NCBI GenBank assembly: GCA_964187785.1
Contig: OZ076409.1
Location: forward strand, 76,944,001 to 77,008,000
Reading direction: 5' to 3'
Source: Amphiscolops sp. MND2022
Taxonomy: Eukaryota
DNA length: 64,000 nucleotides
Every line of letters begins with the position of its first letter. Position 1 is the stretch's first letter. The translations under genes were made by a program, and so were the position numbers. The notes beneath the pieces are model-generated. The model searched no databases. It saw nothing but the letters and a program-made list of their open reading frames with translations, and had not been told where the DNA came from. Shown one piece after another: positions 29,394 through 63,787 of the stretch.

Positions 29394-30879
29394 TGTAAGA
29401 CCCACGTCCCGTGGTGTCTCTTAAATCAAAAGCGGACCGTGAGTCCTTTTTTGTTAATCTAGTTTTCAACCCCGATGTATTTTCCCTGTTTTCCTGATTA
29501 TTAGGGGACAGGCTTGTCTCAGTGTCCCTGTATCCTCAAGATGACATTGAACTCACAATGTTTTGAATCTCTGGTATAACTCTTCCAGATATAGCAGTGC
29601 TGATGGCCCTGTTTATTTGATTGTGGACCATAGACATCATAGAGTCCATTTCTTGAGACAGTCTAAGATAGAACTCATTTGAAAAAGTCTCAAAAGACTG
29701 CGTAATGTCATTTTGTGTGGGTGGATCATTTTCACATGCAAAATCCTTATAATCACTTCTTTGATGTATATTATCCTCAATGTCACCTTGAACTGAAGAT
29801 TGCTCAATAGCGTTTGCTAGTTCCCTTTCTATAGGATTATCATTCCCATTCCCTAGCATAATGTCTGAATGTTTAAAGGCATAAATGCTTCTATTGGGGA
29901 AATATTAAAATAGTCTCAATAACTTTATCAGCAAAGAGAGTTGATAGAAATGGTTTACAGTGTACAAACGTATAAACTGATACTGTTGAAGGAAGCTCAA
30001 AATATGGTCCCTAAGACCACGATTCCCTCGTATTTATAACTGCACCTTCATGACAGTCAATTTTAGAGGCGCCATTGGTCTATTTTTTGAATGAGGTCAG
30101 CTAAAAATAGCATCTGGGTGACGTTATACTCTAAATATAAACATCTAAAGGTAGTGGCATAAATGTTTACATGGCCTTAAAGGCTACATCAACTATATTC
30201 ATGGGAAATTCATATGAAACATTTACATGTGAGAGCAACATTACATGTATAACAACACATATTTGCATGAAGATTATTGGACTAAAGTTCCATTTGATGA
30301 ATATGGGGAAAAGGTACAAATTAAACCCTCTTGGGTCCCTAAGGCTATTTCACTATATCACTTCTGATTAGCGCCTTTATTGAGTGGATGAACGCTAAAT
30401 AGCTCCTCTCATTATTATTTGGACTCAGTGTCTAATTGCCGCAGCTTGTAATTCGAAATAAACAAGTCAATGACGCACCGCCATTGAGTCCAATGTTAAT
30501 GCTGATAAGTATACTGCTCTCTGGTTGGTTGATAAATAAATCGGACAGTATGTCCAGCGAGACAGGAGAGGAAACACTTGAACTCGTTTCCTCTACCTGT
30601 ACGCCTTGGTGTCCAATTTCTCAACGCATACAAATATCTTTACTTGTTTTATCACATCATATCAGTAACACAGCAACCAAATAGATATAGCTACATGTTT
30701 TAATATATATTAACATAACAAAACAGTTTCAGTATGTAAAGTTTCAGTCCTGCCTACTCTGATCTTCCGGGCCTGACTGTCGACCTTTCCTTAACTGAGT
30801 GGGATTGTCCCGGGTAAAGCCCTATCGTAATCATAGGCAATCGTATACCAGTTGCCCTCGCAGGCGGCCGCCTGCGACA
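29394..30879 (-). repeat. 3' LTR of element A (1486 bp); contains a copy of the Gag N-terminal coding region (ORF 29536-29859)
   Basis: Near-identical to 41543-43082 (7 mismatches counted in a ~140-nt sample from 30171). A small deletion lies just after the Gag ATG. Confidence 0.95.
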
Positions 30880-32971: not shown

Positions 32972-35900
32972 ATGTCGACAAAAGAACCAAAGTCTGAATT
33001 GCCTCCTTCGCCAGACAAAAGTCAGGAGACAGTCCAAATGACTCAGGGTACATCTGGGAATTTATCTGGAGACTTGCAGCCTGGTTCGAATCAGTCATCT
33101 AGCAGTGGTGACACTGAGGAAAGTCTCGCTGCCTACGCGGATCATACTCTTCGTGCCTTAGCTTCCATAGAGTCTCAGAGTCACTACCCTTTGAGCGGGA
33201 GAGGACTGAACCTTTACAAGCTAGCGAGCAACTGCAAGAAACGTCTGGAGGGACTAACAGTAAACGTGTGCCATGGGATCGGAGTAAGGATTACTTTGCC
33301 ACCGATACTAGTGAAGTAGAGGAACTATACGACAGTATGGGAGCAGAATGGATTCACAAGAGGCTTACGTCTTGCATCACCTATTCCGATTTAATGGCGG
33401 GGGCTGAAGATACAGGCGGACATGATGAGAACAGGACAAAACCGACTCCTGCTTGTCCTGAAGTCAAAGAGCCAAAAATGCCCGAACAATTTTCCGCAAA
33501 TGGGCAAGCTGTGTTCAGGAAGCATTTCTCACAATCCAAGCCAGTCACACTTCCTAAAGGACATAGCACTGTTTCGTTCAGTGTGCCGCAAAGCCATGCC
33601 GTCCTCGAGACTATTTCCCACAAAACCGTGAAATGATCAGTCCACGTCATGCGCTCCCTCGTCCTGCATGCTGTCTACGGGGGCGGAAACAGACTCCTGG
33701 GCAATTTAAGAAGTCGATGATTCAAGGAGTAACCTCTGCCAGGGGCGCATATACCAGCTCTGCCGAAGAAACGGAGAGTGACGGGTGTAATACCGATGAC
33801 TACACTAGTGGAGCCATTACGTCTGATGACGAGCTCATCGCTGCTACTAGACGCCGAGGTGGTACAACAATACCTCGATCATCTTTTACTTATCCCGTCA
33901 CTTCTGATGAGGAGATTGAAGAAACCCCTGGTACACGCCACACCATTGTTCCCAGCCCAGGTTATAGTGAAGGTGATTACCAGCATTTGAGCTCCATGCA
34001 ATCGAACACTCACCCAAAACGCCCTACCGCAAGCGCTCCTAGGAAAAGACGTAAGAACGTTGGTAGACCCGGCAAAGTCATGAAATCTGCGTATTTCAAG
34101 GGTATTCAGTGGACAAAGCTGTTTGTAACGAGCCCCTTGGACCCCGTTCACAACAAGCACAAATTTTATTGTCAAATCTGTAAGACAAACGTGTCGATTT
34201 ATTCCAAGCGAACCAGGGAAAAAGTGTGGCATTACCAATCTGAGGCACATCTCCGTAAGAACCAGTGATGGCGTTTTGAGCATCTCGGGAAAATTGACAA
34301 ACTCACTGGCCTTAAAGTCCATGCAGTCAGAGGAAGAGATGGACTTTTGCTCTCAGCCCTTGAGCTTGAAAAAGAGAAACCGCTGATTGAAGCTGCACCT
34401 CTGATGGATATTGGTCCCCGATTCACATTTAATGATGATTACATGGCAAACGAGGGAGGACTAACTAATTCAGAAGACAAAAGATTGGGAATTCAAATTT
34501 CCTCAAGTAGCCGTACCGTTCCACATTTTGGTAACCTTACCCTGTTGGAAGGATTATGTGCAGAGGTCAATAGTTTCACCAACCATCAGGAGATGCGTTT
34601 CGCCAACTTGACTGGAGTTCCAACCATCACACTTATAGTAAGTACTTCCAATTCTTCAATAACCAGCCTCAGGGGGTTGACATTAGTTGTTAGAGTGGAA
34701 ACATTATTGGCAATTTCTGATTGCTTAGTCGTGGACATCGCTGTTTTGAGAAATTCGATTTGTTCTGGGCTTTATTCCACCATGTCTTCCTACGAGGGAT
34801 GGAGGACGTTGCTCAGGCAGTGACTGCTTGTGGAGCATACTCTTCAAAATTTGAGCCACATGGGAACCAATGCATTCTATCTTTGCGGTATTGGAAAGCC
34901 GACAACCTGGTCAAGGTCCAACTATGCAAACATCCACTGTCCTCCGAACCAGGTCCCAGTCAACTGCTGATGGTCTCACGCCTCATTTACTTCCTGTCCG
35001 CTTCGCCACAGATCGTCTGCATCTCAGGATGCACATCGGAAGTGCTACAGGCAGTTGAACAGTCTGGCTTATTCAAGAAGGGGTTGAATACCCTTTCCGT
35101 TTCAATGCCCTGTCTTTCCCTAAACTCACGCACCAACTCGAGGGAAGTGTGTTTGGCGGAATAGACTTCTTCACCCAACTGAAATACCTCCTGAGCTTTC
35201 TCAGTAACAGTCTCGAACAGCCCTGGATGCCAAATTGTCCAGAATTAACCGAGGTTTGGATTGTTGAGATAGCGTTATCTTGGTTTCATTTTATCTATCG
35301 CGATAACGCAATCCTTGTCCCTTTCGGGTCATTAACAGCTGTGACTTACGGAGACGATCCATTCCCGCAATCAGCACTGAGGTGATTACCAATTGGCAAC
35401 CCCTCCTGGACCACATGACCAGAATTGCACCAAGCTATGAGATGCGAGTGGTTTAAAATAGGGTTGTAAGTTGTCCTATTGATTGGTTTAACCAAACACC
35501 ATGCACTTATGACGAGGCTGTTTTCTTTTAGCCACAGAGTCTGGAATGGACGATAATTACAGATGACTTCTTTCTGGTCAAATTAGAGTTCTTCGGGAAG
35601 ATGATTTATGATTGATAGTATAACATCCAATTCAGAACATTCCCATATTACTAGGGCCCATTAGTTGCTTCTTTATGGAATCGGAACAAATATATAGGAT
35701 TGTTCTTAAAAGTGATGTTTCTCTGCTTAGATAATCGTTGTTTTGAGAGAAGTTTGGTTGGGCACAAAGACTCTGGACTTTTTACTTATGGGCAGTTGAA
35801 TAATTTCATTCGGAAGCTTTGTTACCGCTCTCTCCTGCCAAAGCACCTGCCCAAAGATACAGACTGGACACAGCTTCCTGTCCTACGAACTTTAGAGTTA

Positions 35901-36882
35901 TGTCAGCTTTCCTCCGGAGATTTTCTTCATCGATTGAAATTGAAAGAAGATTTGGACAAAGCTGCCACTGCCAAAGTCAAGCGTGATCACAGTGACAAAG
36001 AAGGACATATACTCAATCTTGCCAAGCTCGTCAAGGATTGCAAGGAGAGATTCGTTAGTAAGGCGAGAGGCTACCTCGTGTTTTTGCTCGAAAAGTTGCC
36101 ACAGTATAAACACCGAGATTGTCAGAAGAATGGCTAGCTTTAATTACCATATTCTCTTGAGTTCACCACCGGAACAGGTTACGCATTGCTTCTTTGCGTT
36201 GTACAATAGTTTCAGCCTCCGCGGATGGCTTGAGGGATCAACCGAGGATCATTGCCCAGACGAGTACTTGGAATTTACAGACCAGTTCCGACAGAAATAT
36301 GCCTCTTTGAAAGACTCGCCTGATGGGTTTACGGACATGGTAGAGTTGTTGTCTGGAATGTCCGAGCTCCGCAATCGCCCCCACCTATATCACATGTAAC
36401 GACTGCGTTGTTTATGTTTAACTGAAGATACCCTCTTGCTCCTTCCGATACGCTTTCAAGATGTTGATGCTCAGAGTCCCAGGTGTAGATTGGTAGATGT
36501 GTTACTGCCAGCTCAATCCTATTTGGCACGGGTCCCAGAAGCCATTACAGTTTGCACCAATGATGATTCTTTGACGAAATATCGAGAGGGGGATGAGCTG
36601 TTAAGTTCTGCGAATATGGCTGGTGACCCTTGGGTCCATGTAGATACTTTCGGAAGAGCAGAATTCTACAAGACTCTCATTGATACTTATAAGTCTATAG
36701 TTCGAGTGTCAAAGTCAGCTTTCTCAAGCCGGTCTAGTTCCTGGTCCAGTTCTCTTTCCATTAGTGGTCGCCTCAAGCCTTCGTCTAGTAAAGGGAAGAA
36801 GAAGGTTGTTTTCGGCCTTCCCATGACTCTGAAAGAAAACAAGCCTAATCAGGAGTCATCGCAAGACAATGCTAATCTTTAA
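32972..36882 (+). pseudogene. Antisense accessory gene of element A: BED-zinc-finger, hAT-transposase-like protein; exons ~32972-34637, 34769-35253, 35328-35462, 35532-35613, 35731-36882; multiple frameshifts
   Basis: Exon-by-exon protein similarity to 58548-62593 (GKVMK.AYFKGIQWT, FHHVF.RG, PQSLEW.II.DDFF, FQDVD..S.RCRL, AGDPWVHVD.FG). Several splice sites are decayed. Confidence 0.85.
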
Positions 36883-40407: not shown

Positions 40408-42091
40408 GTTTTTTGAATCAGTTTTGCGAGAAGTTGATTGGCCAGAAGCGTTTGTCTTTGTGGTACTTGACTTCTTAGGTGTCTTTTCTTCTCCAGAGGT
40501 GTCATCGGCTTTGTCATCCGTGTGCATCCTTTTGGGACGTCGATGTGCCCCTGCCCCTTTCCAGCACCGTTCAACGGGGTGGTTCTTTTCCCCCTAAGTT
40601 GGGCATTCTGAGTAAGTTGGACGTTGGGGCTTTTTGCCATTTTTATCTTCCAATTCCTTTTTCTTCTTGAGTTCGGGTAAAGTTCTATAGTAGTGGCCTG
40701 TAGCTTTGCAATATCAGCATTGGGCATCCTTGTTGGTGTTAATACCATTGGACAGCAAATTGCTATTGTTGGTGGACGCTGAGGCCATAGTGGCCATTGG
40801 CAAGTCTTCTGACTCCTCCAATGCATTGAGTTCGAGCTCTCTTTCGAGATGAGCGACATTCTCTTCATATGTCCCATTCTCCAGACGGGCCATGTTGACA
40901 GATCGTTTCAACTTCGGAGGCAGTTTTGCATACAACAGGCTGTCAATCATACTTTTTGCATTTTCACCAAAAGCTTTTTCTGCTCCTTGGTCCAATTCTT
41001 CCAAGTAACCTAGCAATTTCATGGTATTAGGGTCAAAAGTGAGTCGATGCCGTTTATGTTTTGCCTAGATTGGGATTCCGATTTGACGTATTTCCTCCGG
41101 AATATGACCAGTACGTCCTCTAGAGTCTAACGGTTGATGGAATTTATGTTCCTGAATGTCTGTATTGCCCCCTTTCGCAGCAGTGAGTGGAAATGGTTTA
41201 TCTTCATCTGCTCTGTCATAGCCGGTTGCATTTTGATCATTGTATGGGACAAGTCCTCAAAAAGCTCAAATTTTTCGCTTTTTCCGTCAAAAGTCATTGG
41301 CGTGGTTTGAACTGGTCTGATGGTCATCGATTGGGGTTTGTTTTGCAAAGTGATCAAAAAGTCAGCCAATCTGTTTAACGGGTCCTGCGGTGTTTCAGGT
41401 ACCTCTGGTTCTGGGGCTGGCAGAGTGGTGTCCAGAAAGACATTGTGGTTTGATTGTTGTCTCTCCAAGTTTTGGATTGAGTGGATTCGTCCAGTCAAAA
41501 ATTCGGGAATTTGCTGTTGGGCGTCGTTAGCTCCTGTCACCATGTAAGACCCACGTCTCGTGGTGTCTCTCAAATCACAAGCGGACCGTGATCCCTTTTT
41601 TGTTAATATGGTTTTCAACCCGAATGTATTTTCCCTGTTTTCCTGACTATTAGGGGACAGGCTTGTCTCAGTGTCCCTGTACCCTGAAGATGACATTGAA
41701 CTCACAATGTCTTGAATCTCTGGAATAACTCTTTCAGATAAAGCAGTACTGATGGCCGTTTATTTGATTGTGGACCACGGACATCATAGAGTCCAATTCT
41801 TAAGACAGTCTAAGATTGAACTCATTTGAAAAGGTCTCAAAAGACTGCCTGACATCATTTTGTCTCGGTGAATCATTTTCACATGCAAAATCCATATAAT
41901 CACTTCTTTGATGAATATTTTCCTCGATGTCACCTTGGACTGAAGATTGCTCAAACGCGTTTGCTAGTTCCCTTTCATCAGGATTCCCATTCCCTAGCAT
42001 ATTTTCTGAATTATCCAAATCGGAAATCATGTCCATTTCTCTAGATTTTCTAGCCTTGGCCTTTTGCTTTCTGTCTTCTTGTGAAAGGCAT
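40405..42091 (-). pseudogene. gag: gag of element A, starting inside the 5' LTR
   Basis: ATG CCT TTC ACA AGA AGA CAG at 42091. Fragments 41800-42036, 41127-41705 and 40714-41022 match B Gag. Confidence 0.85.
41531..41542 (-). promoter_or_regulatory. Primer binding site of element A (TGGTGACAGGAG; probably tRNA-Leu-like)
   Basis: Follows the LTR end CTTACA and is identical in element B. It differs by one base from the tRNA-Leu-type PBS TGGTGTCAGGAG. Confidence 0.8.
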
Positions 42092-43082
42092 AAATGTCTC
42101 TTTTGGGGAAATATTTATTTTTTCCCTATGACTTTACCAACAAAGAGAGTTGATAGAAATGGTTTACAGTGTACAAAAGTATAAACTGATACTGTTGAAG
42201 GAATCTCGAGTTATGGTCCCTAAGACCACGAGTCCCTCGTATTTATACCTGCACCTTCATGACAGTCAATTTTAGAGGCGTCAAAGGTCTATTTTTAAAA
42301 TGAGGTAAGCTGAAAATAGCATCAGGGTGACGTAATACTCTGAATATAAACATCTAAAGGTAGCGGCATAAATGTTTACATGGCCTTAAAGGCTACATCA
42401 ACTATAGTCATGGAAAATGCATATGAAACATTTACATGTCAGAGCAACATTACATGTATAATAACACATATTTGCATGAAGATTAATGGACTAAAGGTCC
42501 ATTTGATGAATATGGGGAAAAGGCTACGAGTTAAAACCTCTTGGTTTCCTGAGGCTATTTCACTTTTGATTAGCGCCTTTTATTGAGTGGATGAACGCTG
42601 AATAGCTCCTTTCATTCAATTTTGGACTCAGTGTCCAATTGCCGCAGCTTTTACTTCAAAATAAACAAATCAATGACGAACCGCCATTGAGTCCAATAAT
42701 AATGCTGATAAGTATACTGCTCTCTGATTAGTTGATAAATAAATCGGACTGTGTGTCCAGCGAGCCAGGAGATGAAACACTTGAGCTCGTTTCCTCTACC
42801 TGTACGCCTTGGTGTCCAATTTCTCAACGCATACAAATAACTTTACATGTCTTATTACATCAAATCAGTAACAAAGCAACCAAATAGATATAGTTACATG
42901 TTTTATTATATAATAACATAACAAAACAGTTTCATTATGTAAAGTTTCAGTCCTGCCTACTCTGATCTTCCGGGCCTGACTGTCGACCTTTCCTTAATTG
43001 AGAGGGATTGTCTCGGGTAAAGCCCTACCGTAATCATAGGCACGCGTATACCAGTTGCCATCGCAGGCGGCCGCCTGCGACA
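41543..43082 (-). repeat. 5' LTR of element A (1540 bp)
   Basis: Direct repeat of 29394-30879; TATA-like TATAAATA on minus near 42240-42247. Confidence 0.95.
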
Positions 43083-46403: not shown

Positions 46404-46928
46404 TTGAATTTGAAAATCCTCAGTTTGGAAGGAGTCAAAAATGTTGGTTGGATTACCTTACCGTTTTAGATAATTGAACAATTTCAGTAGGTGCCAGCAT
46501 GATGGAAATATAGTCTAATAAACATCTCTAATGTAAATACTATGTCTTATGTACTTAGATATGGGCAATATGAAGTCATATATTGAGAGTCATGGTTGTG
46601 AGCAACCCTACGTTACCTGTACTTAAATCTCTTCTTTTGAGTGTGAGTTTCGGTGTCCGCATAAATGATCATGCCCATAGAAACAAGGTGCTATAATCAT
46701 TAAATATTGGTTTGTCACGACAAGGGAGAAAAGTTTTCCGGTCAGACTGGGTCGAAGGACAAAAAAGAGATGAACTTTGTTCCTTCATAAAGCTCCTGCC
46801 TCAGAGCGACAGTTGTGAAAAATCATTATCTCAGTTCACCAGCGCTAACTTATGCAACATAATGTAGGAAAAATCATCCTTTCTCATCCACTAGACTAAT
46901 TACAAAGAACCACGCATATAATTGCGCT

Positions 46929-47420
46929 CCCAGCAAAATTCATCGCAAACCCATCAGCGGGTTCGAAGGTGAAATCATTCAACTGCCATTTTATCATAAC
47001 TCATCTGAAATCCATCAGCGGATTTCGACGGTGACGTGTTTTGTTATTCATCACAAATCCATCAGCGGATTTGCTAGCAGTACTCTTTGATGATTATCTT
47101 TTGAAGTTCATCGCAAACTCATTCTCAAGTTTGCAAATGAACTAAACATGGGACTTAGTTATTTATTTAAATCATAAGTGCATCAACGGATTTCTCGGGA
47201 CTTAAAATTTGTCAAACTCATCATAGAAACTTCGCAAGTTCATCAGCGGACTTGTTCAGTATGTTTGATTTAATTCGAATACTTCAAACTGATGTACTTT
47301 CCATTTTCTGAAAAAAAAACATGAAACACATCGTTAGTTCATCGCATAACTAGAGAGACTGAGGAAAATGGAAAGTATATCCTTAATTCATCAATAAAAG
47401 AGCGATTGTGCTGGATTATA
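46929..47420 (+). repeat. Degenerate array of CATCAGCGGA/CATCGCAAA motifs after a CCCAG start; likely end of another CMC-like element
   Basis: CATCAGCGG at ~46952, 47013, 47060 and 47241, and CATCGCAAA at ~46941 and 47109. Matching right TIR not found with confidence. Confidence 0.4.
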
Positions 47421-48276
47421 TTATTTGAATGAGAAACACATCGATAATTCATTGTCAACTTAGTATTGTGCTGAAATATGAGAGGAAGTCCATCCTTTTT
47501 TCATCGCGAATCCAATTGGTGCTTGAATTCAGTAAATACCTTTGTGTTTTCATCCTCAAACCATTCGTGCACTTGGGTAACGTCGTATATTGTCAGTACA
47601 GCTTGGAAATCACCGCATTTTTATCACCAAAGGCAATTTACATTGATTTAACTCAGTATTAGTGCAAGAATGATCATATTCATCATGTTTCTATCCCCAT
47701 AGCAACCGTTGTTATGTGCAGGTAATTTGCAAACGCTGTAAAGGGTATGATTCTCTGGTAATTAGTATATATGCAGGTTTACCATACGAGGTAGCCATCC
47801 TGCGGCATTTTGCACCACTGGTAGTCATGTGACTTACCAATTAACACCAGCTGTTATAACCAATGAAAAACGAAGGTTGGTAAAAATTGTGTCTTAATAA
47901 CCAGCAGAACGCGCGAATTACTGAAGTTTGAACCGCCATAGTTGGATAGTCAGAAGAGAATTGTGACTAGCTAGAGTACAGTCGGTACCGTACGACACAT
48001 TTGCATCCGAATTCCATCAATTTTCAAAGCTGATTAATCAACTTCTACCTGATTTCAATTTGCGATGAAATTGAGATGACTTCCTTCTGTTGTGTTTCAT
48101 ATTGAATTTCCTACTACTGTAAAAGAAATAATTTCGAATCCTTCATCGAAAACTCATCTCACTTCAAAAGAGTGAGTTTGAGACATTTGTACCAAACTAT
48201 TTAAAATAGAAAATAAACGCCCGATAACCGATACAAATAATCCAGTCTTCGCTCACATTTACTTTTCGCCCCTCGT

Positions 48277-48583
48277 ATGAGTTTAGAACAAAGAATCCAG
48301 CTCAGGAACGGCAAAGTTATTAATTTTATGTCAGAAGAAAACACCTCCTCAAGTAACGTGATGGCAGAGTCGAACATAGTTGATTCCGACACTAACGACA
48401 GCTCCGACATTTCTTCCCAGTTGACTGAAATGAAAGAGAATTTTGAGAGAAAAATTAGTGAATTGCCGTCAGAATTTAGCCAACTGAAAGACCTGATGAT
48501 GGCTGTCAGAAGCAAGTCGAACAATGAAAGCCCATCGAAAAGTTCTCAAGGTCTTTCAAAGCGGCCCCAAGTGGGGTCCGACA
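48277..48583 (+). pseudogene. Gag-N-terminus-like ORF fragment, possibly from a solo or truncated LTR of another family
   Basis: MSLEQRIQLRNGK..., acidic/Ser region then coiled-coil-like segment. Coding-like composition stops abruptly at ...GTCCGACA (LTR-like CA end). Confidence 0.35.
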
Positions 48584-50149: not shown

Positions 50150-50357
50150 TTTTTAGTCGGCGTTTTCGAAGAAAATCCCGACTCTTACAGTGGCTAGTTT
50201 TTTTTTCGTCAGTTCAACGCGTAACGTCCACTTTTTGTGCATTATAATGCACATTTACCAACTTTTACCATATGTACTTAATACTTCATTTTCAACGCAT
50301 CCAAAGCGTCTAACATGAGAAAAAGCGTCCCCCCTTTTACATTTTCGGCACTATGCG
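50150..50357 (+). mobile_element. 5' part of Helentron/DINE-like element interrupted by element B
   Basis: TTTTTAGTCGGCGTTTTCGAAGAAAATCCCGACT 5' end. The family motif TTTTCGGCACTATGCG abuts TGTCGCAGG of the B LTR. Confidence 0.65.
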
Positions 50358-51985
50358 TGTCGCAGGCTGCCGCCTACGATGGCAACATTTACACGATTGA
50401 CCATACGAAGCCAATCGCCCTACCTGGGACGCTCCCATTGTAAACCAAAACTTTCAAACATTTAGTATTATTTTGAACATGTAATATTAATTGATGAATT
50501 ATATTGTTATTTCTTATGTAAAATACATTTGACAGCAAGACATACTGACAGGCAGAAAGGAAACGTGTTCAAATGTTTACCTGCTCAGTATGGCTAGCTA
50601 AGCCGCCTACGGTCAATTGGCCAATCAGAGTGCAGTTTGTAATAGCCATCTTATTACTTATTACGTAACTGTGCTAATAACTATTTAGAATGGACCAAGG
50701 CGGCCAACTAACTTTGCCGGCCTTTTTGTGCTCTAATGCTATACTTGATTGGTATTCAGTAATTACAAATAGGACGAAAGCGGCTATGTGACATAGCCGT
50801 CCCAATTCACTGTATTAATTGTCTTGGTGCTATGCAGTAAATAAGGCCTGTCATGGCCGGTTGGCACGATGAATACTCAAATGCTGTATACTTGCCATAT
50901 GAAATTGGTATTCCAGTTAATTAGTGGCTTGAAGATGCAAATAACCCACCCCATGCAATAAACAGACATATACACTGTTAACATGTAATTGTTGCTCTCT
51001 CATATTATGATGGGACTGAATTAGAAAACCCCAACGGCCATACGCCGAACAGGGCCTTCATGAATTGTTGTGCATGTAAACTGTTGCTTGCATGAATTAT
51101 ACTTGTAAACAATTTGACCCATATGTGGATGAGACTTGTCGGGCCCTTTGATCTAGCCGCCCGCACAAGTCTAAAATGATGTCATGTTACTATTTATAGT
51201 GCTGACGTATCTATTTTTAGTTTGCGTTGCTATTTTTAGTATCATGACCGTTACAATTTTGCCTGTCATGCCCTCTGGGGTATATATACCCAAGTCGGCC
51301 TGACAAAGGTTAATCATAATTTAGCAGCTACCTGATACACTACGCTCATTTTGATTAATCTGAAAATAGAAATACTTGTCCACAGGAACAATTCAAATAT
51401 TTTCTCCTGGAATAATATTTTCAATGCCTTCTACGAGGAGACAAAAGGCCAAGTCTAGAAAATCGAGAGAATTAGATATGTTGTCCGACTACGGCAACAT
51501 GGACGTGATGCTAGGTGGGAGAAGTTCCAACTCTATAGAGAGAGAACTCGATAGCTTGATTAACGTCCCTGAGGGACAACGAGACTTTCAGTCCTTTCCA
51601 AATAGAGAAAACTCATCTCAAGAAAATGAGATTAGAGACATTGATAGTAGAAATGAACCAGTTAGGGAAAGTAGGCTAATTGAGTCTATCAATACGCTAT
51701 CTGGTGAAATGAACGCTAGGATGTCACGCGAGATGAAGGCTATGATGGACCTAATGCAATCACAAATTACCAGAGCCATTAGCTCTGCTATAAGCGAGAG
51801 AATTATTCCGGAAATACAAAATATGGTTGAAAACTTGCCTTTGGGTCAAAATGGCGTTGGGCCGGGTACGTCCCTAAATGAGGATGGAGTCAGAAGCGCA
51901 TGGGAGAACGCAAATACAAGATTGACAAAGAAGGACTCTAGGTCCGCTTGTGACTTGAGAGAACATCCGGACGTTAGTCCTTACA
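50358..51985 (+). repeat. 5' LTR of element B (1628 bp, boundaries inferred from homology with A)
   Basis: Begins TGTCGCAGG and ends CCTTACA before TGGTGACAGGAG; TATA-like TATATATA at 51281-51288. The second LTR is not in the window. Confidence 0.85.
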
Positions 51986-53126
51986 TGGTGACAGGAGCTA
52001 CCGAACTCCAACAGCCGATTCCTGAATTCCTCACAGGACGAATCCACTCTCAGCCAGACCTCCAAAGACAAGAATCTACTCATGATACAACTCTGGATAC
52101 AACTCTGCCAATAGCGGAGCCTGCTCCGGCAGAACAGCAACAAGACCCTATCAACCGATTGGCAGATGTCCTGGTAAACCTCCAAAATAAACCACACTCG
52201 ATGACAATTAGACCAGTCACGACGAACCCCATGACATTTGACGGCAAACAGAGAAATTTGAATTGTTTGAAGATTTATTTCATACAATGATAAAGATGCA
52301 GCCTGCTATGACTGAACAAATGAAAATAAACCATTTTCATTCTCTGCTCAGAAAAGGAGCACTGCAAACTTTCCGAAATATAAACTCCATAAACCGTCAA
52401 ACATTAGAAGACGTATTGGTCATATTCCGCAGAAAGTACGTCAAACCCGAGTCTCAAGCCACAGCTAAACATAAGTGGCATAGGCTCATCTTTGATCCCA
52501 ACACAATGAAACTACCCGATTTTCTTGAGGAACTCAACCAGGGTGCCGAGAAGGCCTTTGGGGAAAACGCCAAAAGCATGATCGACAGTCTCTTGTATGC
52601 TAAATTACCCCCAAAACTCAAAAGATCAGTAAATATGGCTCGACTGGAAAACGGGACCTACGAGGAGATTGTGGCACATCTGGAACGGGAACTTGAGTTA
52701 AACGCATTAGAAGAATCTGATGACCTACCCATTGCTACAATGGCTTCGTCGTCCAACAAATCCCGAAATTTACTATCTAATGGCATTGACACCAACAAAA
52801 ATAACCAATGCTCATACTGCAAGGCAGACGACCACTTCTGGAAAAACTGTCCAAAACTGAAAAAGAAGAAAGAATCAGAGGCCAAAGACGGCAAGAAGCC
52901 TCAACGACAAACTTATCCAGAATGTCCCACCTGCAGCAAAACCAATCACCCAGCAGAGAAATGTTGGCGTGGCGCTGGTGCCCATCTTCGTCCAAAAAGA
53001 AATAGACAAGACTCCTCCAAAGACACGGAGCCCTCTGAAGACGAAGGCACTCGCACCAAGAATGAAAAATCCACAACATCCTCATCAGGCCAATCGAACT
53101 CCAAAAAACCGGAATCAAAAAACTAA
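51424..53126 (+). CDS. gag: Gag with two CCHC zinc knuckles; one apparent 1-nt deletion near 52248
   Basis: MPSTRRQKAK start; CSYCKADDHFWKNC and CPTCSKTNHPAEKC. Element A reads FDGKSEKFELFEDL continuously where B shifts frame. Confidence 0.9.
51986..51997 (+). promoter_or_regulatory. Primer binding site of element B (TGGTGACAGGAG), within the gag reading frame
   Basis: Identical to A. Read in frame as TAC ATG GTG ACA GGA GCT (Y M V T G A). Confidence 0.85.
53117..53123 (+). other. Putative -1 ribosomal frameshift heptamer A AAA AAC at the gag-pol junction
   Basis: X XXY YYZ pattern in the gag frame just before the TAA. The -1 frame is the pol frame. Conserved in A at 40408-40414. Confidence 0.75.
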
Positions 53127-56100
53127 TTTTGCCACGACTCCAAATCTCTGACCAAATGTCGATACGACAATATGTCATATCTGACCCAGCTAACATCGCT
53201 TAAAGGCAATCACAAGAGAACATCACAGGGACCCCATCGACTGTCTGGCAGCAGCAGATGGTGGAAGCCTGTACTCAAACTCAATATATTATTCACAGTG
53301 ACCACCCATACCTATATCGACGTAATAACCTCACCAAAGACTTAGAAACCCAATTCCGACCCTTACAAACTGTCGAAGACTATAACCCCCAATACTACGA
53401 CCCCGAGTACGGCAAAGACCCGTACTGGGATGATGATTTATACGATAAACACAATTTACAATTTCGGAATGATGACTACCCGCCAACAGACGATGAGTAC
53501 GACCCTGACATTGTAGACACCATACTGTCCCGGGCACTTATCGAAACGTGGCAACCAAATTTTGATGCAATCAAAGATCAGCCACATACAGAAGAGACAC
53601 AGGCCATACCTGGCCTCCTCGACGAGACAGCCTTCATACATGTCCTTGTAACTAAAGAGGGAGAACCAGCGTACATACCATTATCCACAAACCTCGGACT
53701 CAAATACAAACAACGGATGCTATATTTCCCGATGGACTTTGGGGAACTAACCATAGACGGCCTCATAGACACTGGAGCTCACTCCAGCGCAATTCCGGAA
53801 GCAGACCTCAGGAAAATACGCCTATTGGCGCCCCAATCCATAGTCAAAGAGGGACCTGCCCCGACGTTCCAAAGTATGGTCGCAAACGGACAATTGGAAA
53901 CCACAAAGAGCACTGTTGAACTCAAGTTCGAAGTCGGAGATATCGAATTCCACGAAATATTTATAGTAATGGAAAAACTGACTGGCCCTATCATAGGATT
54001 AATGTTCCTCCAGAGGAATCATACAGTACTGGACATGCGACAAGGCATACTCAATTTCCCATATTTCTCGATGCAACTCAAAACGGCTGACCATAAATAC
54101 TCCAACGTACTGGAACCAATACTTAACCCAGACGACATCACAATACCACCCAATGACCGTACCTTAGTAGAGATCAAATCCCAAATCTACAATGAAAACA
54201 CGGTCACAGGTGTGTTGCAACCCAGTGATCTCCTCCATGAAGAAGGCGACATCACATTCTGTGCCGCAATAGTAACATTGACTAATGGAAACGTTAACGT
54301 TCATATCAACAATTTCACAGACCAACCGTACAAGCTTAAAAAGGGACTACACATAGCAAACTTTTCTGTACTAACACCGGAACAGATGAAACACGTCAAA
54401 CCAATTGACCCGGTGTCCACATGGCATCTCCTCAATGAAAATGAAGAGGATGCGATCTACTATGTCAGTAGTCTACTCAAGGCTAATCGGAACAATGACC
54501 AATATGAACAGTACTGGTTTCCTACGCCAGAAAACCCAGGGGACGAAGATTCCTATACTCCCATCCAACGACGAATTATTCAAGAATTACGAAACCTCCA
54601 AGAAGCTCAACAACTGAATCATCAGAATGATGATGAGTCACGCCGCAAATGCCTTGGCAATTTCGACTGGAAAAACTCCATGCTGCAACAACATGAAATC
54701 AAAAAGATCGAATCGCTTTTAGTCGAATACCATGACATATTCGCACGACACAGATTTGACATCGGAATGAATGAAGAATTCACGGTCAAACTGACCCCTA
54801 AGGACAATTCGCCTGCTTACAGCCAAAGTCTCCCAACTCCAGTCAATTTAAAAGAGGACATACTCGTCGAACTGGCCCTCTTACACAAATATGGCATAAT
54901 AACTACACTGCCATTTTCGAAATACGCCAGTCCCATATTCGCACAGAAAAAACCGAATGGGAAGCTAAGACTACTAGTCGACCTGAGGAAAATTAATAAC
55001 CTCATTTCGGATGACTATATAAACAACAATCATCCGGTTAGTACCCTAACGGACGCTGCACAACATATGGCAGGAAAGAAACTATTCTGTAAACTCGACT
55101 GTTCACAAGCATATCACTGCCTACCAATGGCGGATCAAAGGTCCGTTGAGATGCTTGCGTTCAACTTTGCAAGCCCCACCTTTGCGTATAGACGACTTGC
55201 CCAGGGCCTTAGCAGGGCATTATCAGCATTTTCAAGTTTTATTAGGGAATATCTCGACAAAGTTAGTTATCAAAGCTGATCAATGTGCCCAATATGTCGA
55301 CGACATTGGCATAGCCGCCAATGATGCGGATCATCTCATAAGAAATTTGAAAGCAACATTTGAGTGCATTAGGCATGCTGGCCTTAAACTGACAATGCAC
55401 AAATGCCACTTCGGGGCAACGGAAATCGATTTCTTGGGGAGAACAATTACTCCGGAGGGAGTCAAACCACAAAAGGAGCGAATAACCAACTTCCTAGAAA
55501 AAACCAAATTCCCCAAATCTAAAAAGGCTCTACAAAGATATCTTGGTTTCCTCAATTATTACAGGAACTATATCCCAAGATTATCTGAAAAATTAGCTCC
55601 TTTCTTTCAACTTCTCAAAAAAGACGAAAAAGTCCTGGTGACCACAGAACTAATACAACAGTTCAATGAAATCAATCGGGACCTCGACAAATGTAGCCAA
55701 TTGGCCCTGAAGCAACCCTTACCAAACAAGCAACTGGTCCTGATGACAGACGCTAGTTTCACAGCGGCCGGCTACGCCATACTTACCGAGGACGACCCAA
55801 ACCAGAAATATTCATCTGTCAAAAAATCATACGCTCCAATTGCATATGGCTCAAAAACGTTTACGCCATCGCAACTCAAAATGTCCATATACGCAAAGGA
55901 ATTCTTAGCAATTTACTACGCATTCAAAGAATTTGGACATATTTTCTGGGGAGCCCCTAAACCGATTACTATCCTAACGGACAACAAATCGGTCACGAGA
56001 TTCTTCCAGACGAAGATAATCCCTCCAACACTCTGGAATGCATGTGACTATGTAATACAATTCAACTTTGTCATAGCACATATACCAGGGAAAAACAACA

Positions 56101-58369
56101 CAGCAGCTGACTACTTATCTCGCATGGAAACGGACCCCAGAGAGAAACTAGTCCTTAAAATCCGAGAAGACATAGAGACTAAGCCCATCGAGGTCAATGT
56201 CCAATCGGCAGGCGTAGCTGAAGAGGAACAGGTCTTCTTCACGGAGCAAGATGATGAGACAGAAGCTCAAATTTGGGAGCGTAAAAAACAAAGCCGAACT
56301 AACCCAATCGACCAAGAAGGCGTAATTCAAATTGACGCAATATCTGAAAGTTTAGTAGATGAAATTACGAACTTTACCCAAAAAATGCGCAGAACGAATC
56401 AAATTTTACTTGAACAATCCGAAGACCCTATGCTGCGCCAACTCAAAGCCAAAGTTCAGAACGAAGACTATTCTGAAGAACTACTCCAGCAAGATATCCG
56501 ATACAAACACTACCTTAACAACTTGGACCGAATAGTCCTTAAAGACGAAACAGTCACACGACAATATTATGATGAAACTGGACAAGTCAAGTATCACCAG
56601 GTTCTCTTACCAAAACACCTTTTGACAGAATTGTTACAGGCCTTACACGGAACGGCGCACAAACACCCGGGCATATCGAAAATGTTACAAGAAATTCGAC
56701 AGAAATACTACTACCACGGTATAGCAAAACATGTTAAAAAATGGGTAGAAGGATGTGTAACTTGCGCAAAAGATAAAAGGGTTCCAAACAACACGATAAC
56801 ACCTGAATTGCTTAACTTGCCAGAATGGGACCTTGGCCCAGAGGACGCAATGCAAATTGATTTACTCCCAAACTTACCAACAAGCGGGGGTTACCAAACA
56901 GTGATGACAGCAATAGATGTCTTTTCAAGATATCTATTTGCCTACCCGCTAGTTGAGGCAACAGTCTCTAACACGGCAAAGGTCTTAATAGACATCATGA
57001 CAAAGCACTCATATTTGCCAACTACGATCATCATCGACAAAGGAACCGCTTTCACAGCAAAAATAATTGCAGAGATAACGCAAGTATTGGGAATAATCCT
57101 AAAATGTGCGACAACTAAACATCCACAAACAATTGGCAAACTCGAGAGAACTCACGCCTCATTGAAAACAAATTTGAAAATGGCCTCAGGGGAATATCGC
57201 CGTCAATGGCACAAATATTTGCCGCTAGCAGTGCTCAATTATAACACAACTTATCATTCCAGCATCGGTTGTGAACCGAGCAAGGTCTTTCACGGAAGAA
57301 TTCCCTATAACGTTCTTGATCATAAACTTGGAAATAACCCTAATAAGGATTTCCTCCCCACGACGGAATTTGCTGAAGAATTACAACAGAGAACGAAAGT
57401 TCTCATTGACAAAACGAAGCACAACATTATGCAGTCCTACTTGAAATATAAGGAGTACTATGACCGAAAAGCCAAAGCAGCTCCTCTCAGCGAACAAGAT
57501 TTTCGTTTTATCCTACAGCCTAAAGCAGATAATCAAGGATCAAAAATACCACTCAGAGAATATCGCTGGATCGGTCCCTATCGAATTGAAAAGGTATTAC
57601 CTAACCATAATTACATTGTCCGCCGGTTAAATACGAATAAAACACAGATATTACACCGAATCCGCCTGAAAAAATTTGTTCCTAACACGACTTTACAGGA
57701 CAAATATGCCAAAGAGAAATTGCAACCAGATGATGAAATAATCATACCACAAGATGATTTATACACCATCTCATGGGAAGCAGATTTTGACTACCATCTC
57801 TTTGAGCCGAGACGAGACGATAATACGGACGAAGAATCGCAAAAACCAGACAGCGATGCTGGTGTCACGACTAGTGATTACGTCATTTATGACAACGCTG
57901 ATGACAACGCGGTAAGGCCGAGGACGGCCACCAGCCGAGACGGCACAATCACACGAGACGCAAATGACGTCACCGAACTGAATGAACGAACCAAAAGGAA
58001 TGAAAATGAAGCGGGACCGAGTACGGCCGCTAGCCGAGACGCACCTATAATGCATGATGAACATGACGTTAGCGAGAATGCTGCGCGAGACGAACAAAGC
58101 AGCGAAATAGAAAGGCCGAGAACGGCCACTAGCCGAAATAGCCACAATGGTGGCAATACACCACCTAGTTCAGAAAAGAACGTGAATGACGTCACAAACG
58201 AATTAGAAGGCGAGAAAAACTCTCCTAACGAGGGGGATGATATTACCGTGCCCGGAATATCGAATGAAAAAGCAAATGAAAAAACTGACAAAAACTCTAG
58301 CCCTAGAGGGGGAAATACAACCTCCGACCTAACCCCAACCCCAACTATACTGACGAATACAGATACTAG
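53123..58369 (+). CDS. pol: Pol: aspartic protease, dUTPase-like segment, RT, RNase H, integrase with GPY motif and long tail; a few lesions (TAA near 53201, 4-nt duplication near 55262, G loss near 58310)
   Basis: LIDTGA; KLDCSQAY and QYVDD; TDAS...KEFLAI...TDNKS...ADYLSR; H..H..C..C; QIDL / IDKG / KLERT; WIGPYRI. Confidence 0.95.
57914..58140 (+). repeat. Three ~99-nt tandem repeats in the integrase tail
   Basis: RPRTATSRD, GPSTAASRD and RPRTATSRN at ~57914, 58013 and 58113. Confidence 0.7.
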
Positions 58370-58547
58370 TCAGAAATGTTAAATTATGTCCCTATTTATT
58401 TTATTGCCCGGGATGGCATGTTTTTTACTGGGACTACTCTGACTTCTTTGACTCAAAAGAAACTAACTATATAAATACTAAAACAAGAAACAGAACTGAA
58501 ATTTACAAATAGAAAAGTCTAAAATGGCGAATGTACACTATGTACAT

Positions 58548-61500
58548 TTAACTTTTAGAGCTTCCTTCTCGCAATTCTTGGACAGTCTTTGAGATCTCAC
58601 TAGCAGGAATGTCGCCAAAATAGGCCAATTTTTGAGCTTGCCCAGCAGCCCAATTTATCTTTCGCCCAGCAGAAGTTGAGACAGAGGACGAACGTGAAGC
58701 CGTGCTAACGCCAACCACAGGAGTTCCTTTCAAATTCTTGAAGGCAGCAGTAAGGGTCTTCAGGAAATTTGCCTGCCCAAAGACGTCGACGTGAACCCAA
58801 GGGTCTCCAGCAAGCTGTCCAGAACTAAATTGTCCCTCCAATTCTTTGTAGTTGGCTAGAGCGGTTTCAGTGGTACAAACGGAAATCGCACTTGGGCAAT
58901 TTGTCAAGTAGGATTGGGCGGGCAGTACTACGGCAGAAAGACGGCACCGGGAACTGGAGGTATCGACATCCTGGAATTTAACGGCAGGAAGGGTTTGATG
59001 TCCCTCAGTTATGCAAAGGCAGCACAACTGAAACAAGCGAAAAAGCCTAGCACGACTTCGGAACGCAGTAATTGGAATAAGGAGATGTAACACGTCAGCA
59101 ATAGTCCCTGGGGAAGACTTAATGGAAGGGTAAGATTTGCGGAAGTAATCCACAAACTCGAAATATTCATCCCGACAGTCATTACGGGAGGATTCGTCCA
59201 CCCAGCCGCGAAGTCGAAAGCTGTCATACAAAGCGTTGAAGCAAAAGGATACTTGCTCAAGAGGTAATGTTAACAACACATGGGGATCGAAGCTACCCAT
59301 ACCGCGGACAATATTCGCGGTGAAGTGAATATCCCGAAGCAAAGACTCCAACAGAGTGACTATATACGCCCGGGCTTCAGTCCCAAAGTTCTCCTTCTCC
59401 TTGGAGACCAACTCAGCCTGATTAGCGGGTACAGGGTTTGATCCCCTAGATTTCTCCAGTTTTGCTTGACAAACCAGATGAAGGTCACATGTGAGTTTGA
59501 GGCGATGCAAGAAATCACGGATTGATAATTGTCTCAGATCGTCAGGGCACAATTGCAAGAGACCATACCAGTCTGTATCGCTTGGGATACATTTGGGCAA
59601 GATGACGCGGTGGCACAACCGGCGGATGAATCTGCAATATTGGCTATAAACGAAGAGGGTTGCATCCCGCCGTCCAGAGAGACTTCGTTCAAAAAACTTG
59701 GCATCTAAACAAATTTAGAGTCAGATGCAAATCACCAGAATCTACCAAATCCCCCACCTCATCACAAATGTGGTTATGCTTAAGGCCGTGATCGGCACAT
59801 GAGCCGGTAGGTCAACTACACTGGCGGTTCAAATAAAAACAAAGAAAAAACTAACAATCGCGGACCAGCAAGGAGAGGAATTCAAGCTTGATGGTGAAGA
59901 AGTCATCTAGAATAATCTCCCATTCCAGGCTCTGAGGCTTAAAAGGAAATTTACCTCATAAGGATTACATCTTCCAAGATTACAGTGTGGTGTAGTTACC
60001 AATGCTGATCAGCTAGAAAACGGCTAATAGCTACCTTATTCTTAGCTCCTTGCATCTTCTGGGTTGGGGCTATACTGGTCAGGTAGTCCTTGATACCTTT
60101 CCAGCTTCTAACGAGCTCGGAACAAACGGCAGGGATCTTCTTAAGTTCCACATCACATGGCTGTTATGGCCTACGGAACACAATCAAATAAGGAGAACTG
60201 CTTTTTACTAGTGAAAGTGACCAGGAAAGAGTATCGACACCAGGTCACCAAGACAACGTCTAATGAAAAAATTATGTTGAAAAATAAAATCACCTTGCAA
60301 AGTTCAGGACTCTGTAGAGCCCAAGATTGACTGAGCCCGCCTCGGAGGTAGACAACTAGGAACTTCAGTTGGGAGAAAATGTCAATTCGACCAAAGATGT
60401 AACCAGTCTGCAGTGCTGTGGGGTGCATTAACTCGGGAAGGGAGAAAACCTCGAAGCGGAACGGGTACTGAATCCCGCGGTTGAACAGCCCACATGTCTC
60501 CAAAGCTCTGAAGACCATGGAAGAACACCCGGAAACACTGACAAGATTGGGCTTTGAGGACACAACTGACAGCAGACATGAGATAGCTGTTAAGTAACAG
60601 CCCGGATAAGGGTCAGCTTGATTGTGCCGATGAAGTTCAACCGGCACGAGTGAGTCATCTCTCCAGAAACGGACGGACATGCACCGGTAGATGCCCTCTG
60701 TCGTGAACTCAATCGAGTACATCTCAGTAGCCATGATGTGACTGGAGATATCTGCGAGACCTCTCATGAAAACGTGATGGAAGACGTTCTAAAACAAAAC
60801 ACAAATGTACAAAAGTGACGTCTTAGCCAGAGGCCACGTTGGGTCTTACTATTAATTCTATAGATGAAGATTCTACTTACAGTAAGAGTTGCAGGTCCCC
60901 AATCGAATGAGGAAAACAAGGCTTGGTGGTTGGTGAACATGCCCACTCGAGTCCATAAGTTTCGCAACAGGGAAATATTGTCATCTTGCGGTACGAAAGT
61001 CCCAATCAATGAGATTAGGGTACTGGTCCGAAGGTCATCAGGGCTGGTTAGTCCTCCAATACTAGCCATGTAGTCGTCGTAGAACGGGAAACGATCACCT
61101 GTCTCGATCAGGGGGGCATCAATGAATAATGGCTTTTCTTGTTCCAGCTCAATTGGAGTAAGGACGTAACCATCTTTCCCTCTGACATAGTGGGTAACAA
61201 CCCCAGTAACTTCATCAGCCTCTTGCAGATGGGTGAACCTCCATTTTTGATCTTTCCGGAGATGTCCTTCTGTCTTATAGTGTCTAAGGATCTCCCTGGC
61301 GCCCTTTGAGAAAATAGAGACATTAGTTTTACATAGCATGCAGTAAAACTTGAATTTATTGTGGACGGGATCAACGGGGCCAGATACGAAGGTACGGGTC
61401 CATTGGATGCCCTTAAAATAGGCATCTTTCATCACCTTCCCGGGTTTGCTGAGCAACTTGCGTTTTTTCCGGGCTGGGCTCCTGTCCTGAGTTTCTTGCT

Positions 61501-62593
61501 CGGGTAGCCGTCCAAGCGACGAGAGTGGCTGGTAATCAGCACTGCTATACACGCTTCCAGAGTTTGGCGTTGCAGTTTCTATCCGGGACGTGATGGTGGC
61601 GTGGACTTTCCGGGCCCTTGGAGTCAAAGACAAAGGATCAGATTCACTCAGGCAATCTGTGCCAGAACTGGACCCCAACTGGTAAGGATCTTCATCTGTA
61701 TTGAAGGCTCCACTAGTGTAACCATCTGACACGTGTCCTTCAAAGTTACTTTCATCTCCTGAACTGTCAGTGAATGGCCGTGCAGGAGTTGCACACCGTT
61801 TGGGCATAGGCCTTTTCTTATCCTAGGGAGCTCCTCGAGTAGCATGAAGCAACAAAGACTTCATCATGTGGTAGGACGAAAGTACAGATTCGTCGGAAAC
61901 AGTCCTCGGAACAGCGTGCATCTCATCTGCGGTAAGAGCGATGACTGGTTGATCTCTGGGTAGTTCAATGGGGCGAGTGTCCTGAAAATATTTCTTGATG
62001 ACTAGTTTGCCCTTCGCAGAAAGTTGTCTATCGGTGCCGTCTAATTTGGCTCGATACTGCTCCTGTTCAGAATCACTGTGCCCTGAGTCTTCATGGAATC
62101 CCTCTTCTAGATCAGGGAAAGTAGAAGAGTCCAAAATGACATTTGGAGCGACTGGTGGGTAGACGGCAACGCCAGAGCTGTCCATTAAATCTTCTACATC
62201 TGTGGTGTCGCCATATAGTCCTGGTACTTCCTCTGTAGATTCGGTTTCCTTGTTACTGCCGGCCCCTGTCTCAATGTTTGTCAGATCATTCCTCACAGTA
62301 ATGGGCTCCGACACAGAGGCTTTCAGAAAGGGGATGCTGACAGTGACCATCCGGGCAGTAACGCCTTGCCGACTTTGCAGTGGATCTATGATCTCAGCCT
62401 CGGGTTGAGACATTACGTCAATAGTCCTTTCAATAAATGCGGTCACACTTTCTTCAGTAGACCTGCTGCCTTCGGACACTTGGGGAGAAGGCCTGACAAG
62501 GCCTGGTAACTCAACGGTCTCTGGAGTCTCAGTTTCATCGTTCCCGACAACTGGAGCGGTAGTGGGTTCTGGCGAATTTTCCTCTGTTGTCAT
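58548..62593 (-). CDS. Antisense accessory gene of element B: ~1190-aa BED-zinc-finger, hAT-transposase-like protein; exons 62593-60881, 60788-60294, 60170-60035, 59937-59856, 59704-58548
   Basis: Four GT..AG introns (92, 123, 97 and 151 nt) with compatible phases; zinc finger FYCMLCKTNVSIFSKGAREILRHYKTEGH. One in-frame TAG (61823-61825) and a probable 1-nt insertion at the start of exon 3. Confidence 0.8.
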
Positions 62594-63787
62594 ACCTAAA
62601 TGAAAAGAGATAATTCGATGCGGACAACTTCCTGAATATGAGTCCATCCAAACCGCAGTAAAATCTTCCGGAAGTGAAAAGGAATAAAACATGACGTCTA
62701 AATTGCATTGACGAAAATGGACAGGAAGTGCATGAACGAGATGAAAAGCCTTGATCAAGCTTATTTCCGTTCAAAAATTAAAAGACCAGATAGCTTACCT
62801 GCAGTTGTTGGCCAATTGGGAGCTGAAGGAGTATGACGTGAAGATCGTTGACGTATTGAAATTGTACTGCAATCCAGGCTAGAAAATCCTGAGGAACCGA
62901 ATGTCCTGATCGGGCAAATCTTTGGCAGTGAAGAGGGAGGAGTAGGTCTTGATAACGACGAAAAGGGAGATCTGGACGAGTCCGGCAACTGGACAACGAT
63001 CCTGAACGAGGGGATGAGAGGCAGTATGAAATTCACAGAAGTGCTGTGGGGTAACGGAAGAAGTATAATATTCAAACAATGACTCTGTACTAAATAAACA
63101 ATGGATAAATACGAATATGGAAAAGTAACGATTAATGAATTGGAAGAAGACGAAATTGATTGCAAGAGCAAAGTTGGAGTTCGTGGCAAACTGGATTTGA
63201 TGTCAAATATTTTTACAATTATGAGAATTATTTTGTGGATGGAATCTGCCAGAGAAATCCACATTAGTTATATTTCGAAACATGCATTTTCATTATTTTA
63301 TTACCTTAGTTATTTCATTATTTTTAGTTATTTTATTATTTCCTTATTTGGATTATTATTTTTAATTCCGCCATATTGAAAAGCGGACTGAGTGGGCGAT
63401 TCCCATTGGCTGTCGCGGCGATGCGCTGCGCGTGGCCTTAAAACTTCATCACCCTCTCTTGAAATTCTCAAGTGGATATCAAGTGGAGATAAACACTAGG
63501 CGAAGTCCTTGAAGGTTCTTTGCCGACTTAGGCAAGCTGAAGTTGATCGTCGGTCAACAAAGCAGAAGGCGGTCTATATCAAAGAACATCTTGGAAAGTT
63601 TAGTCAGCGAAACATGATGCGGGAAACGAAAGACCGGGAAAATGTGAAGCAAAACCATCGAGAAATTGAGAAATGAAAATCGCCATTTGCTTCCTAACTT
63701 TCAAACTAAACAGCTGCTCTACTCAAACCAAATTAAAATTGTCCTATTGCATTCAAAATTGCAAAAAAGATAATAAAAGATAGATTT
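62594..63787. promoter_or_regulatory. Putative internal bidirectional promoter between the two accessory genes
   Basis: Motifs conserved with A 31602-32971: CTTCCGGAAG, ACAGGAAGT, CTTGATCAAG and ATTGGC (CCAAT box). Confidence 0.55.

Follow-up and report, generated by a model that had tools for sequence, protein, structure and literature searches.

Protein-coding sequence inside a long terminal repeat (LTR) is familiar from HIV nef and MMTV sag, accessory genes that overlap the LTR in U3 and are expressed from its 3' copy. A different arrangement occurs in the yeast element Ty1, for which the accessible part of one account places the start of GAG in the 5' LTR, with a 334-bp LTR, a 53-nt 5' UTR, and a primer-binding site (PBS) at RNA nucleotides 95-104 (PMC5454406). 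In Ty1, only the p22 region of Gag restricts mobility according to the sections available from a second study, the N-terminal region acting 1.7-fold as compared with 42,000-fold (PMC4551931). In the usual Ty3/gypsy layout, as outlined in the available portion of a third source, coding lies between the LTRs; the same portion states that an intermolecular first transfer joins the R/U5 of one RNA to another RNA (PMC6894440).

The locus considered here lies in a window of 64,000 nucleotides from Amphiscolops sp. MND2022 (contig OZ076409.1, positions 76,944,001 to 77,008,000), which contains two related LTR retrotransposons, element A on the minus strand and element B on the plus strand. The original prediction held that about 187 codons of the Gag of element B are encoded inside the LTR. 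Very probably, element B is a Ty3/gypsy element with 187 conserved gag codons in the LTR and a frame that continues across a tRNA-Leu PBS, likely expressed from an LTR promoter by ribosomes that scan to the ATG at 51424.

Limits and Classification of Element B

The 5' LTR of element B (50358..51985, plus strand; 1628 nt with TG..CA ends) was delimited by alignment with its own 3' LTR, which lies just past the window end (G000:C1:77008542-77010169, plus strand) and differs by 5 mismatches in 1627 nt. A target-site duplication (TSD), ATGCG, occupies 50353..50357 (plus strand) and recurs directly 3' of the 3' LTR, outside the window. Together, the partner LTR and the duplication on both sides fix the limits of the 5' LTR at 50358-51985. 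The polypurine tract (PPT) before the 3' LTR is AGGGGGAG. The LTR-borne part of Gag, here called the head, comprises 187 codons (51424..51984, plus strand) with a basic N-terminus and, as predicted, disordered spacers and one long helix. As originally stated, the stretch from the gag ATG at 51424 to the LTR end at 51985 measures 562 nt, or 187 codons plus 1 nt, and across the edge the reading frame gives SPY/MVTGA. The Gag body (51985..53126, plus strand) holds a capsid-like helical domain and two CCHC knuckles. It is followed by pol (53258..58382, plus strand), which encodes protease (PR), a dUTPase-like stretch, reverse transcriptase (RT), RNase H (RH) and integrase (IN). The window copy is damaged, with a frameshift in gag near 52250 and pol split into two ORFs. 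Elsewhere in the genome, B-type gag is naturally open for 567 codons, and 12 of the 30 family B copies examined are naturally open through the whole gene.

Judged by the pol domain order, PR-RT-RH-IN by Pfam, and by the best solved-structure match of the pol of its relative P0283, Ty3-G Gag-Pol (E=1e-43; foamy 4e-32), the element belongs to Ty3/gypsy. The two direct LTRs with TG..CA ends, the 5-bp TSD, the tRNA PBS and the PPT agree with this assignment. An affinity to Odin or foamy elements, raised when the PR-to-half-RT fragment of the window alone ranked foamy first, was dropped because the pol of P0283 is closest to Ty3-G. Membership in Ty1/copia was rejected, since integrase does not precede RT, as was membership in Troyka, for which the accessible text reports CG..CG termini and a 3-bp TSD as opposed to the TG..CA ends and 5-bp TSD found here (PMC12440569).

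Several further features of these elements were noted. The dUTPase-like stretch lies between PR and RT at residues 291-371 of the 53258-55279 ORF, matches PF00692 at E=1.7e-4 and 21.8 bits against a cut-off of 22, and is also listed in relatives P0281 and P0320. ORFs antisense to gag-pol lie between pol and the 3' LTR in both elements (58548-63264, minus strand; 32972-36137, plus strand), and one of them has a zinc-finger-like motif. The U3 of family B (50358-51423, compared among L001-L030) is modular, combining two unalignable distal types with two TATA/leader types in all four combinations. At G000:C10:1079115 (L004), an LTR has a PPT on its 5' side and a PBS with gag sequence on its 3' side, which suggests tandem elements sharing one LTR.

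Element A and a Lone LTR in the Window

The 5' LTR of element A (41543..43082, minus strand) contains a decayed head followed by the same PBS, and the 3' LTR (29394..30879, minus strand) contains an ORF, 29536-29859, corresponding to the middle of the head. The two LTRs, read as 43082-41543 and 30879-29394, are about 90% alike, and the TSD is imperfect (CCAAC/CCTAC). Element A had been cited as confirmation of the LTR boundary, and in one respect it serves: both LTRs terminate in the same CTTACA edge. The other part of the claim did not stand, since the ORF covers only the middle 107 codons and the head is not an intact frame. Decay affects both LTRs, and the 5' copy carries frameshifts and stops. 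Between elements A and B lies a lone LTR remnant (46492..48583, plus strand; left end approximate) from a third tRNA-Leu family. Its 102-codon head (48277-48582) reaches the LTR edge and reads 17 codons on into the flank. A TSD was sought at this remnant and none was found.

Selection on the LTR-Borne Head

The head evolves as protein-coding sequence. Calculated on naturally open copies only, with pairs that are non-independent, dN/dS in the head is 0.128 (95% 0.09-0.19) for those B copies whose head is open (23 of 30) and 0.154 for 15 of 30 A-like copies. Between the two groups the value is 0.21, at a dS that is saturated. For full-length B copies (n=12) dN/dS is 0.14 in the head and 0.26 in the body, and for full-length A-like copies (n=9) it is 0.14 and 0.08, respectively. 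When all 30 B copies are considered, shared variants in the head fall at the three codon positions as 17/7/44 (p=1e-7), and those upstream of the head as 33/40/43 (p=0.51). Singleton variants show a weaker third-position bias as well (p=0.004). Open heads vary in length by whole codons (182/183/187). The best-conserved part is the predicted helix, with a dN/dS of 0.04-0.07 at codons -100..-51. Among the 30 B copies, few variants and no third-position bias occur in the final 50 codons of the head or in the first 82 of the body; in family B, the last 50 head codons have a dN/dS of 0.5-0.7 with low dS, so the protein signal there is weak. Overall, the substitution data indicate that purifying selection acts on the LTR-borne codons as it does on the remainder of gag. 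The prediction that Gag is encoded within the LTR is thus borne out by the dN/dS of 0.13-0.15, the codon periodicity and the ATG-free leader described below, and neutrality of the upstream segment, which had been named as the outcome that would overturn it, fails.

Leader, Promoter and Primer-Binding Site

The last 110 nt before the gag start of element B (51314..51423, plus strand) contain no ATG and likely form the 5' UTR. The same is true in 12 of 12 elements, as compared with a shuffle mean of 15.8 and a lowest value of 4 in 2000; one frame is partly constrained by the way the start was defined, which cannot account for the zero count. In the same elements the preceding 330 nt contain 106 ATGs, and CAT is not depleted in the leader (23 in the last 100 nt). 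The ATG-free leader would fit scanning initiation at 51424. A TATA-like box at 51281..51288 (plus strand) lies 143 nt before the gag ATG and would place the transcription start near 51310; in 6 of 12 elements such a box lies 122-155 nt ahead of the gag ATG. Upstream of it, at 51190..51239 (plus strand), are three YTAWWWWTAR motifs, presumably MEF2-like by their consensus. Three such motifs lie 170-235 nt before the gag ATG in element B and L191, and one each in element A and L194.

The original prediction also held that R-U5 and strong-stop DNA are unusually long. The head agrees with this, as by inference they would measure at least 562 nt, or about 670 nt with use of the TATA-like box at 51281. 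No canonical AATAAA or ATTAAA lies between the TATA-like box and the LTR end of element B, and none is common to the families. Recombination did not locate R, with family B U3 crossovers confined to the only homologous island, 51140-51220.

The PBS (51986..51997, plus strand) comprises 12 nt complementary to the 3' end of tRNA-Leu, including CCA, and is read as Gag codons. The tRNA-Leu 3'-end pattern has 913 genomic matches, and three of the eight loci scanned were called tRNA-Leu(CAG or AAG). Most of the listed matches of the 913 belong to a long tandem array on G000:C8 from 35587799, where they are spaced 180-530 nt apart. A junction ATG (51985..51987, plus strand) arises where the final A of the LTR meets the TG of the PBS. 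Because an LTR ending in CA and a PBS starting with TGG always spell ATG, the junction ATG needs no explanation as a start; its presence at all 30 PBS sites sampled follows from the construction of the search pattern. Around the junction dS falls in both groups, to 0.00-0.06 in B and 0.17 in A-like copies, which would fit overlapping priming or integration signals. The idea of an additional tRNA-Leu pairing site within the final 150 nt of the LTR was rejected, since none of 12 elements beat all 20 shuffles there (best 2 of 20); after the PBS, 3 of 12 did. Gag contains two or three tandem copies of the junction motif in P0127, P0224 and P0124, and by eye also in P0149 and P0151, as if the segment spanning the LTR end and PBS had been duplicated. 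This is a possible route by which the LTR edge could move along gag.

Occurrence of the Layout in the Genome

A PBS-junction pattern that excluded the A and B types gave 6993 genomic matches, as compared with 36 for a reversed control. At the first 30 other tRNA-Leu PBS sites on C1, at least 80 open codons lie upstream in the frame of the junction ATG at 22 sites, and openness of this length occurs in the other two frames at 1 and 0 sites. This frame specificity argues that the long open heads did not arise by chance. Ten of the 22 were chosen and 20 kb was fetched for each. A second LTR was present in all ten, ending exactly at the junction in seven, running 1 and 4 nt past it through matching flank in two, and cut 6 nt short by the end of the fetched stretch in one. 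In the ten elements, LTRs of 1.1-2.5 kb enclose 103-215 codons (310-646 nt). Heads group by length in agreement with the RT tree (183-215, 118-132 and 103-110 codons), and intact-looking members are as little as about 57% identical in RT (L169 was left out for a deletion, and A is decayed). Database relatives at 38-58% identity, none of them a named element, have the same junction motif 110-195 residues into the protein. Based on these comparisons of sequence, the Gag head inside the LTR is a lineage-wide trait in this genome. In L186, an open 186-codon head passes in frame into protease-region sequence a short way beyond the PBS, apparently through an internal deletion.

Predicted Structure of Gag

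A structure model of Gag was built from a 45-row alignment. The head is modelled as disordered except for one helix of 59 residues at 78-136 (51655..51831, plus strand; pLDDT 81-90). Beyond the PBS, a helical domain spans residues of about 270-428, and there are two CCHC knuckles. As modelled, Gag combines a retro-type capsid fold with CCHC knuckles. The best structural matches of the capsid are the PNMA2 and dArc1 capsids, which are weak (PNMA2 E=0.005, none 0.001 or better), and Atlas look-alikes carry Ty3_capsid and Retrotrans_gag. A Pfam search of Gag, head included, gave no match, and an Atlas search with the head gave no usable one. Two copies of residues 70-142 scored 0.02 in a complex prediction, and among 224 candidates a weak search revealed no longer or fused form of the capsid region. 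The heads show hardly any likeness between groups, but each is polar and contains an amphipathic stretch, and most start basic. The predicted head is an N-terminal arm that is basic and mostly disordered but includes one amphipathic helix; it likely serves as an assembly or RNA-binding domain ahead of the capsid.

The Head in 3' and Solo LTRs

Among 172 exact B-type LTR ends, the PBS follows in 70 and does not in 102, and four solo LTRs with TSDs were found. The original prediction that each solo or 3' LTR also carries the ATG and an open frame holds for 18 of 18 near copies. In these, the head reads into the flank for 1-91 codons (median 9) with no common sequence. The frames are open because the copies are young. 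Comparison of the LTR pairs of 19 elements gave 17 synonymous and 44 nonsynonymous differences in the head, with no stops among the 61. After transition correction, the post-insertion dN/dS is 0.78, which is compatible with neutrality (p=0.37) and rejects a value of 0.15 (p=7e-10). The further suggestion that these copies have a selected dominant-negative or fusion role found no such footing: the heads are neutral after insertion, the flank tails are short, and the head lacks the capsid domain. A dominant-negative role of head peptides is possible but unsupported by the sequence data.

Alternative Explanations

Three other accounts must be weighed against translation of the head from 51424. 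That the head is untranslated, with Gag starting at the junction ATG and the upstream frame kept for RNA or DNA signals, would be in line with the low dS at the junction, which points to overlapping cis signals, and with the lack of a Pfam or Atlas match. This account is already contradicted by the selection data and has almost no likelihood left, since it leaves unexplained the third-position bias, the whole-codon indels, the ATG-free leader, the frame-specific openness at 22 of 30 sites, and a dN/dS of 0.04-0.14 with dS up to 1.0. Use of both starts is a less extreme proposal, in which the LTR ATG would give full-length Gag and the junction ATG at 51985 a headless capsid-nucleocapsid form that regulates or restricts assembly. 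The headless product would contain the entire capsid domain, all families examined have the junction ATG in frame, the 25 codons 3' of it show a very low dS (0.00 in B, 0.17 in A-like copies), and the accessible text on Ty1 p22 offers a precedent (PMC4551931). However, the ATG itself is forced by the LTR-CA and PBS-TGG, and its frame has a simple origin: TGG-TGA closes one of the two other frames, so that the in-frame position is a one-in-two outcome fixed once in an ancestor. Eleven in-frame Met codons precede 51985 in element B, which makes leaky scanning unlikely, and the proposal would depend on a hypothetical internal start site. A second start is therefore unlikely.

The remaining account concerns the extra copies of the head, whose peptides would be functional, as dominant-negative control of copy number or as host fusions, and kept by selection. 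Many LTR ends lack a PBS match (102 of 172), the 18 near 3' or solo copies keep the frame open, solo LTRs with TSDs exist, no stop codon occurs among the 61 post-insertion changes, and an uncorrected count on 8 distant pairs gave a pN/pS of 0.30. Against these points, the corrected change in 19 pairs is neutral, the open copies are young top matches, the tails have nothing in common, the head lacks the capsid domain, and the N-terminal region of Ty1 Gag inhibits only 1.7-fold in the available sections of that work (PMC4551931). A selected function of the extra copies is unlikely. The favored reading remains that the head is translated as part of Gag from the 5' LTR.

Proposed Replication Cycle and Exchange of Heads

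According to the favored reading, transcription would start about 110 nt before the gag ATG, and ribosomes would scan to 51424 and then cross the PBS as in Ty1. Minus-strand strong-stop DNA of about 670 nt would copy the head into both LTRs. Selection would act only while the 5' copy is expressed and copied, and the 3' and solo copies would arise passively as the LTR is duplicated. With the head located in R-U5, heads would be swapped at the PBS by an intermolecular first strand transfer, which would join the head of one RNA to the Gag body of the other.

Such swapping likely explains the mosaic copies seen in the sequences of family B. In 26 B copies, analyzed after 4 rearranged or outlying copies were dropped, a switch was detected at p<1e-6 in 22. 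The best interval contains the LTR end in 8; others lie within about 90 nt of it (3), at 51860-74 (4) and at 52631-88 (7). These switches represent few independent events, in a region that is very similar. No swap at the junction was found among 105 of 107 A-like proteins analyzed, 8 of which have switches elsewhere. Given the few independent events in B and the absence of events at the A-like junction, the support for head swapping at the PBS is partial. A much broader scenario can be imagined, in which a whole Gag domain moved into R-U5 in one entire Ty3/gypsy radiation of animals, transfers shuffle heads, and head peptides produced by thousands of solo and 3' LTRs bind full-length Gag via the helix and limit copy number. 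Taken as a whole, this scenario is improbable.

Implications

If the favored reading is correct, 300-650 nt of coding sequence under selection can reside in U5 and strong-stop DNA, and the layout is stable across families that are about 57-60% alike in RT. Translation across the PBS would not be peculiar to Ty1, and Gag heads and bodies are predicted to recombine at the PBS. The elements also offer a built-in comparison of one coding sequence in selected (5') and passive (3' and solo) copies. For annotation, a gag start placed 3' of the PBS would leave out about one third of the protein, and orphan genes of 100-200 codons will be annotated at lone LTRs.

Comparison with Known Systems

No description of a gypsy lineage with at least 100 gag codons in the LTR was found in a search of mostly open-access papers, and prior annotation is possible. 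The accessible portions of five articles describe no such LTR (PMC3601003, PMC4402516, PMC11117352, PMC2774666, PMC3095310).

Like HIV nef and MMTV sag, the elements encode protein inside the LTR. In contrast to those genes, the frame encodes part of Gag, lies in the presumed R-U5 and would be expressed from the 5' copy. Ty1 p22/p18, truncated Gag from the element itself, is the model for the dominant-negative idea, but p22 corresponds to Gag's C-terminal half, whereas the LTR-borne piece is N-terminal and lacks the capsid domain. The capsid weakly resembles those of the Arc/PNMA2 family, namely PNMA2 and dArc1. With Ty3/gypsy (Metaviridae) the elements share PR-RT-RH-IN, TG..CA LTRs, the 5-bp TSD, the PPT and Ty3-G as the best pol match. 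They differ in having about a third of gag within the LTR and, as extra features, a dUTPase-like stretch that separates PR from RT and antisense ORFs beyond pol. As in Ty1 (Saccharomyces cerevisiae; Ty1/copia, Pseudoviridae), the gag frame opens in the 5' LTR and the PBS lies within the coding sequence. However, about 41 nt (about 14 codons) of GAG lie in the LTR of Ty1, as compared with 310-646 nt (103-215 codons) here, and these elements also have LTRs of 1.1-2.5 kb, a predicted folded helix in the head, a tRNA-Leu primer and the Ty3/gypsy pol order. In conclusion, the arrangement is a much longer form of the Ty1 layout, now in Ty3/gypsy.
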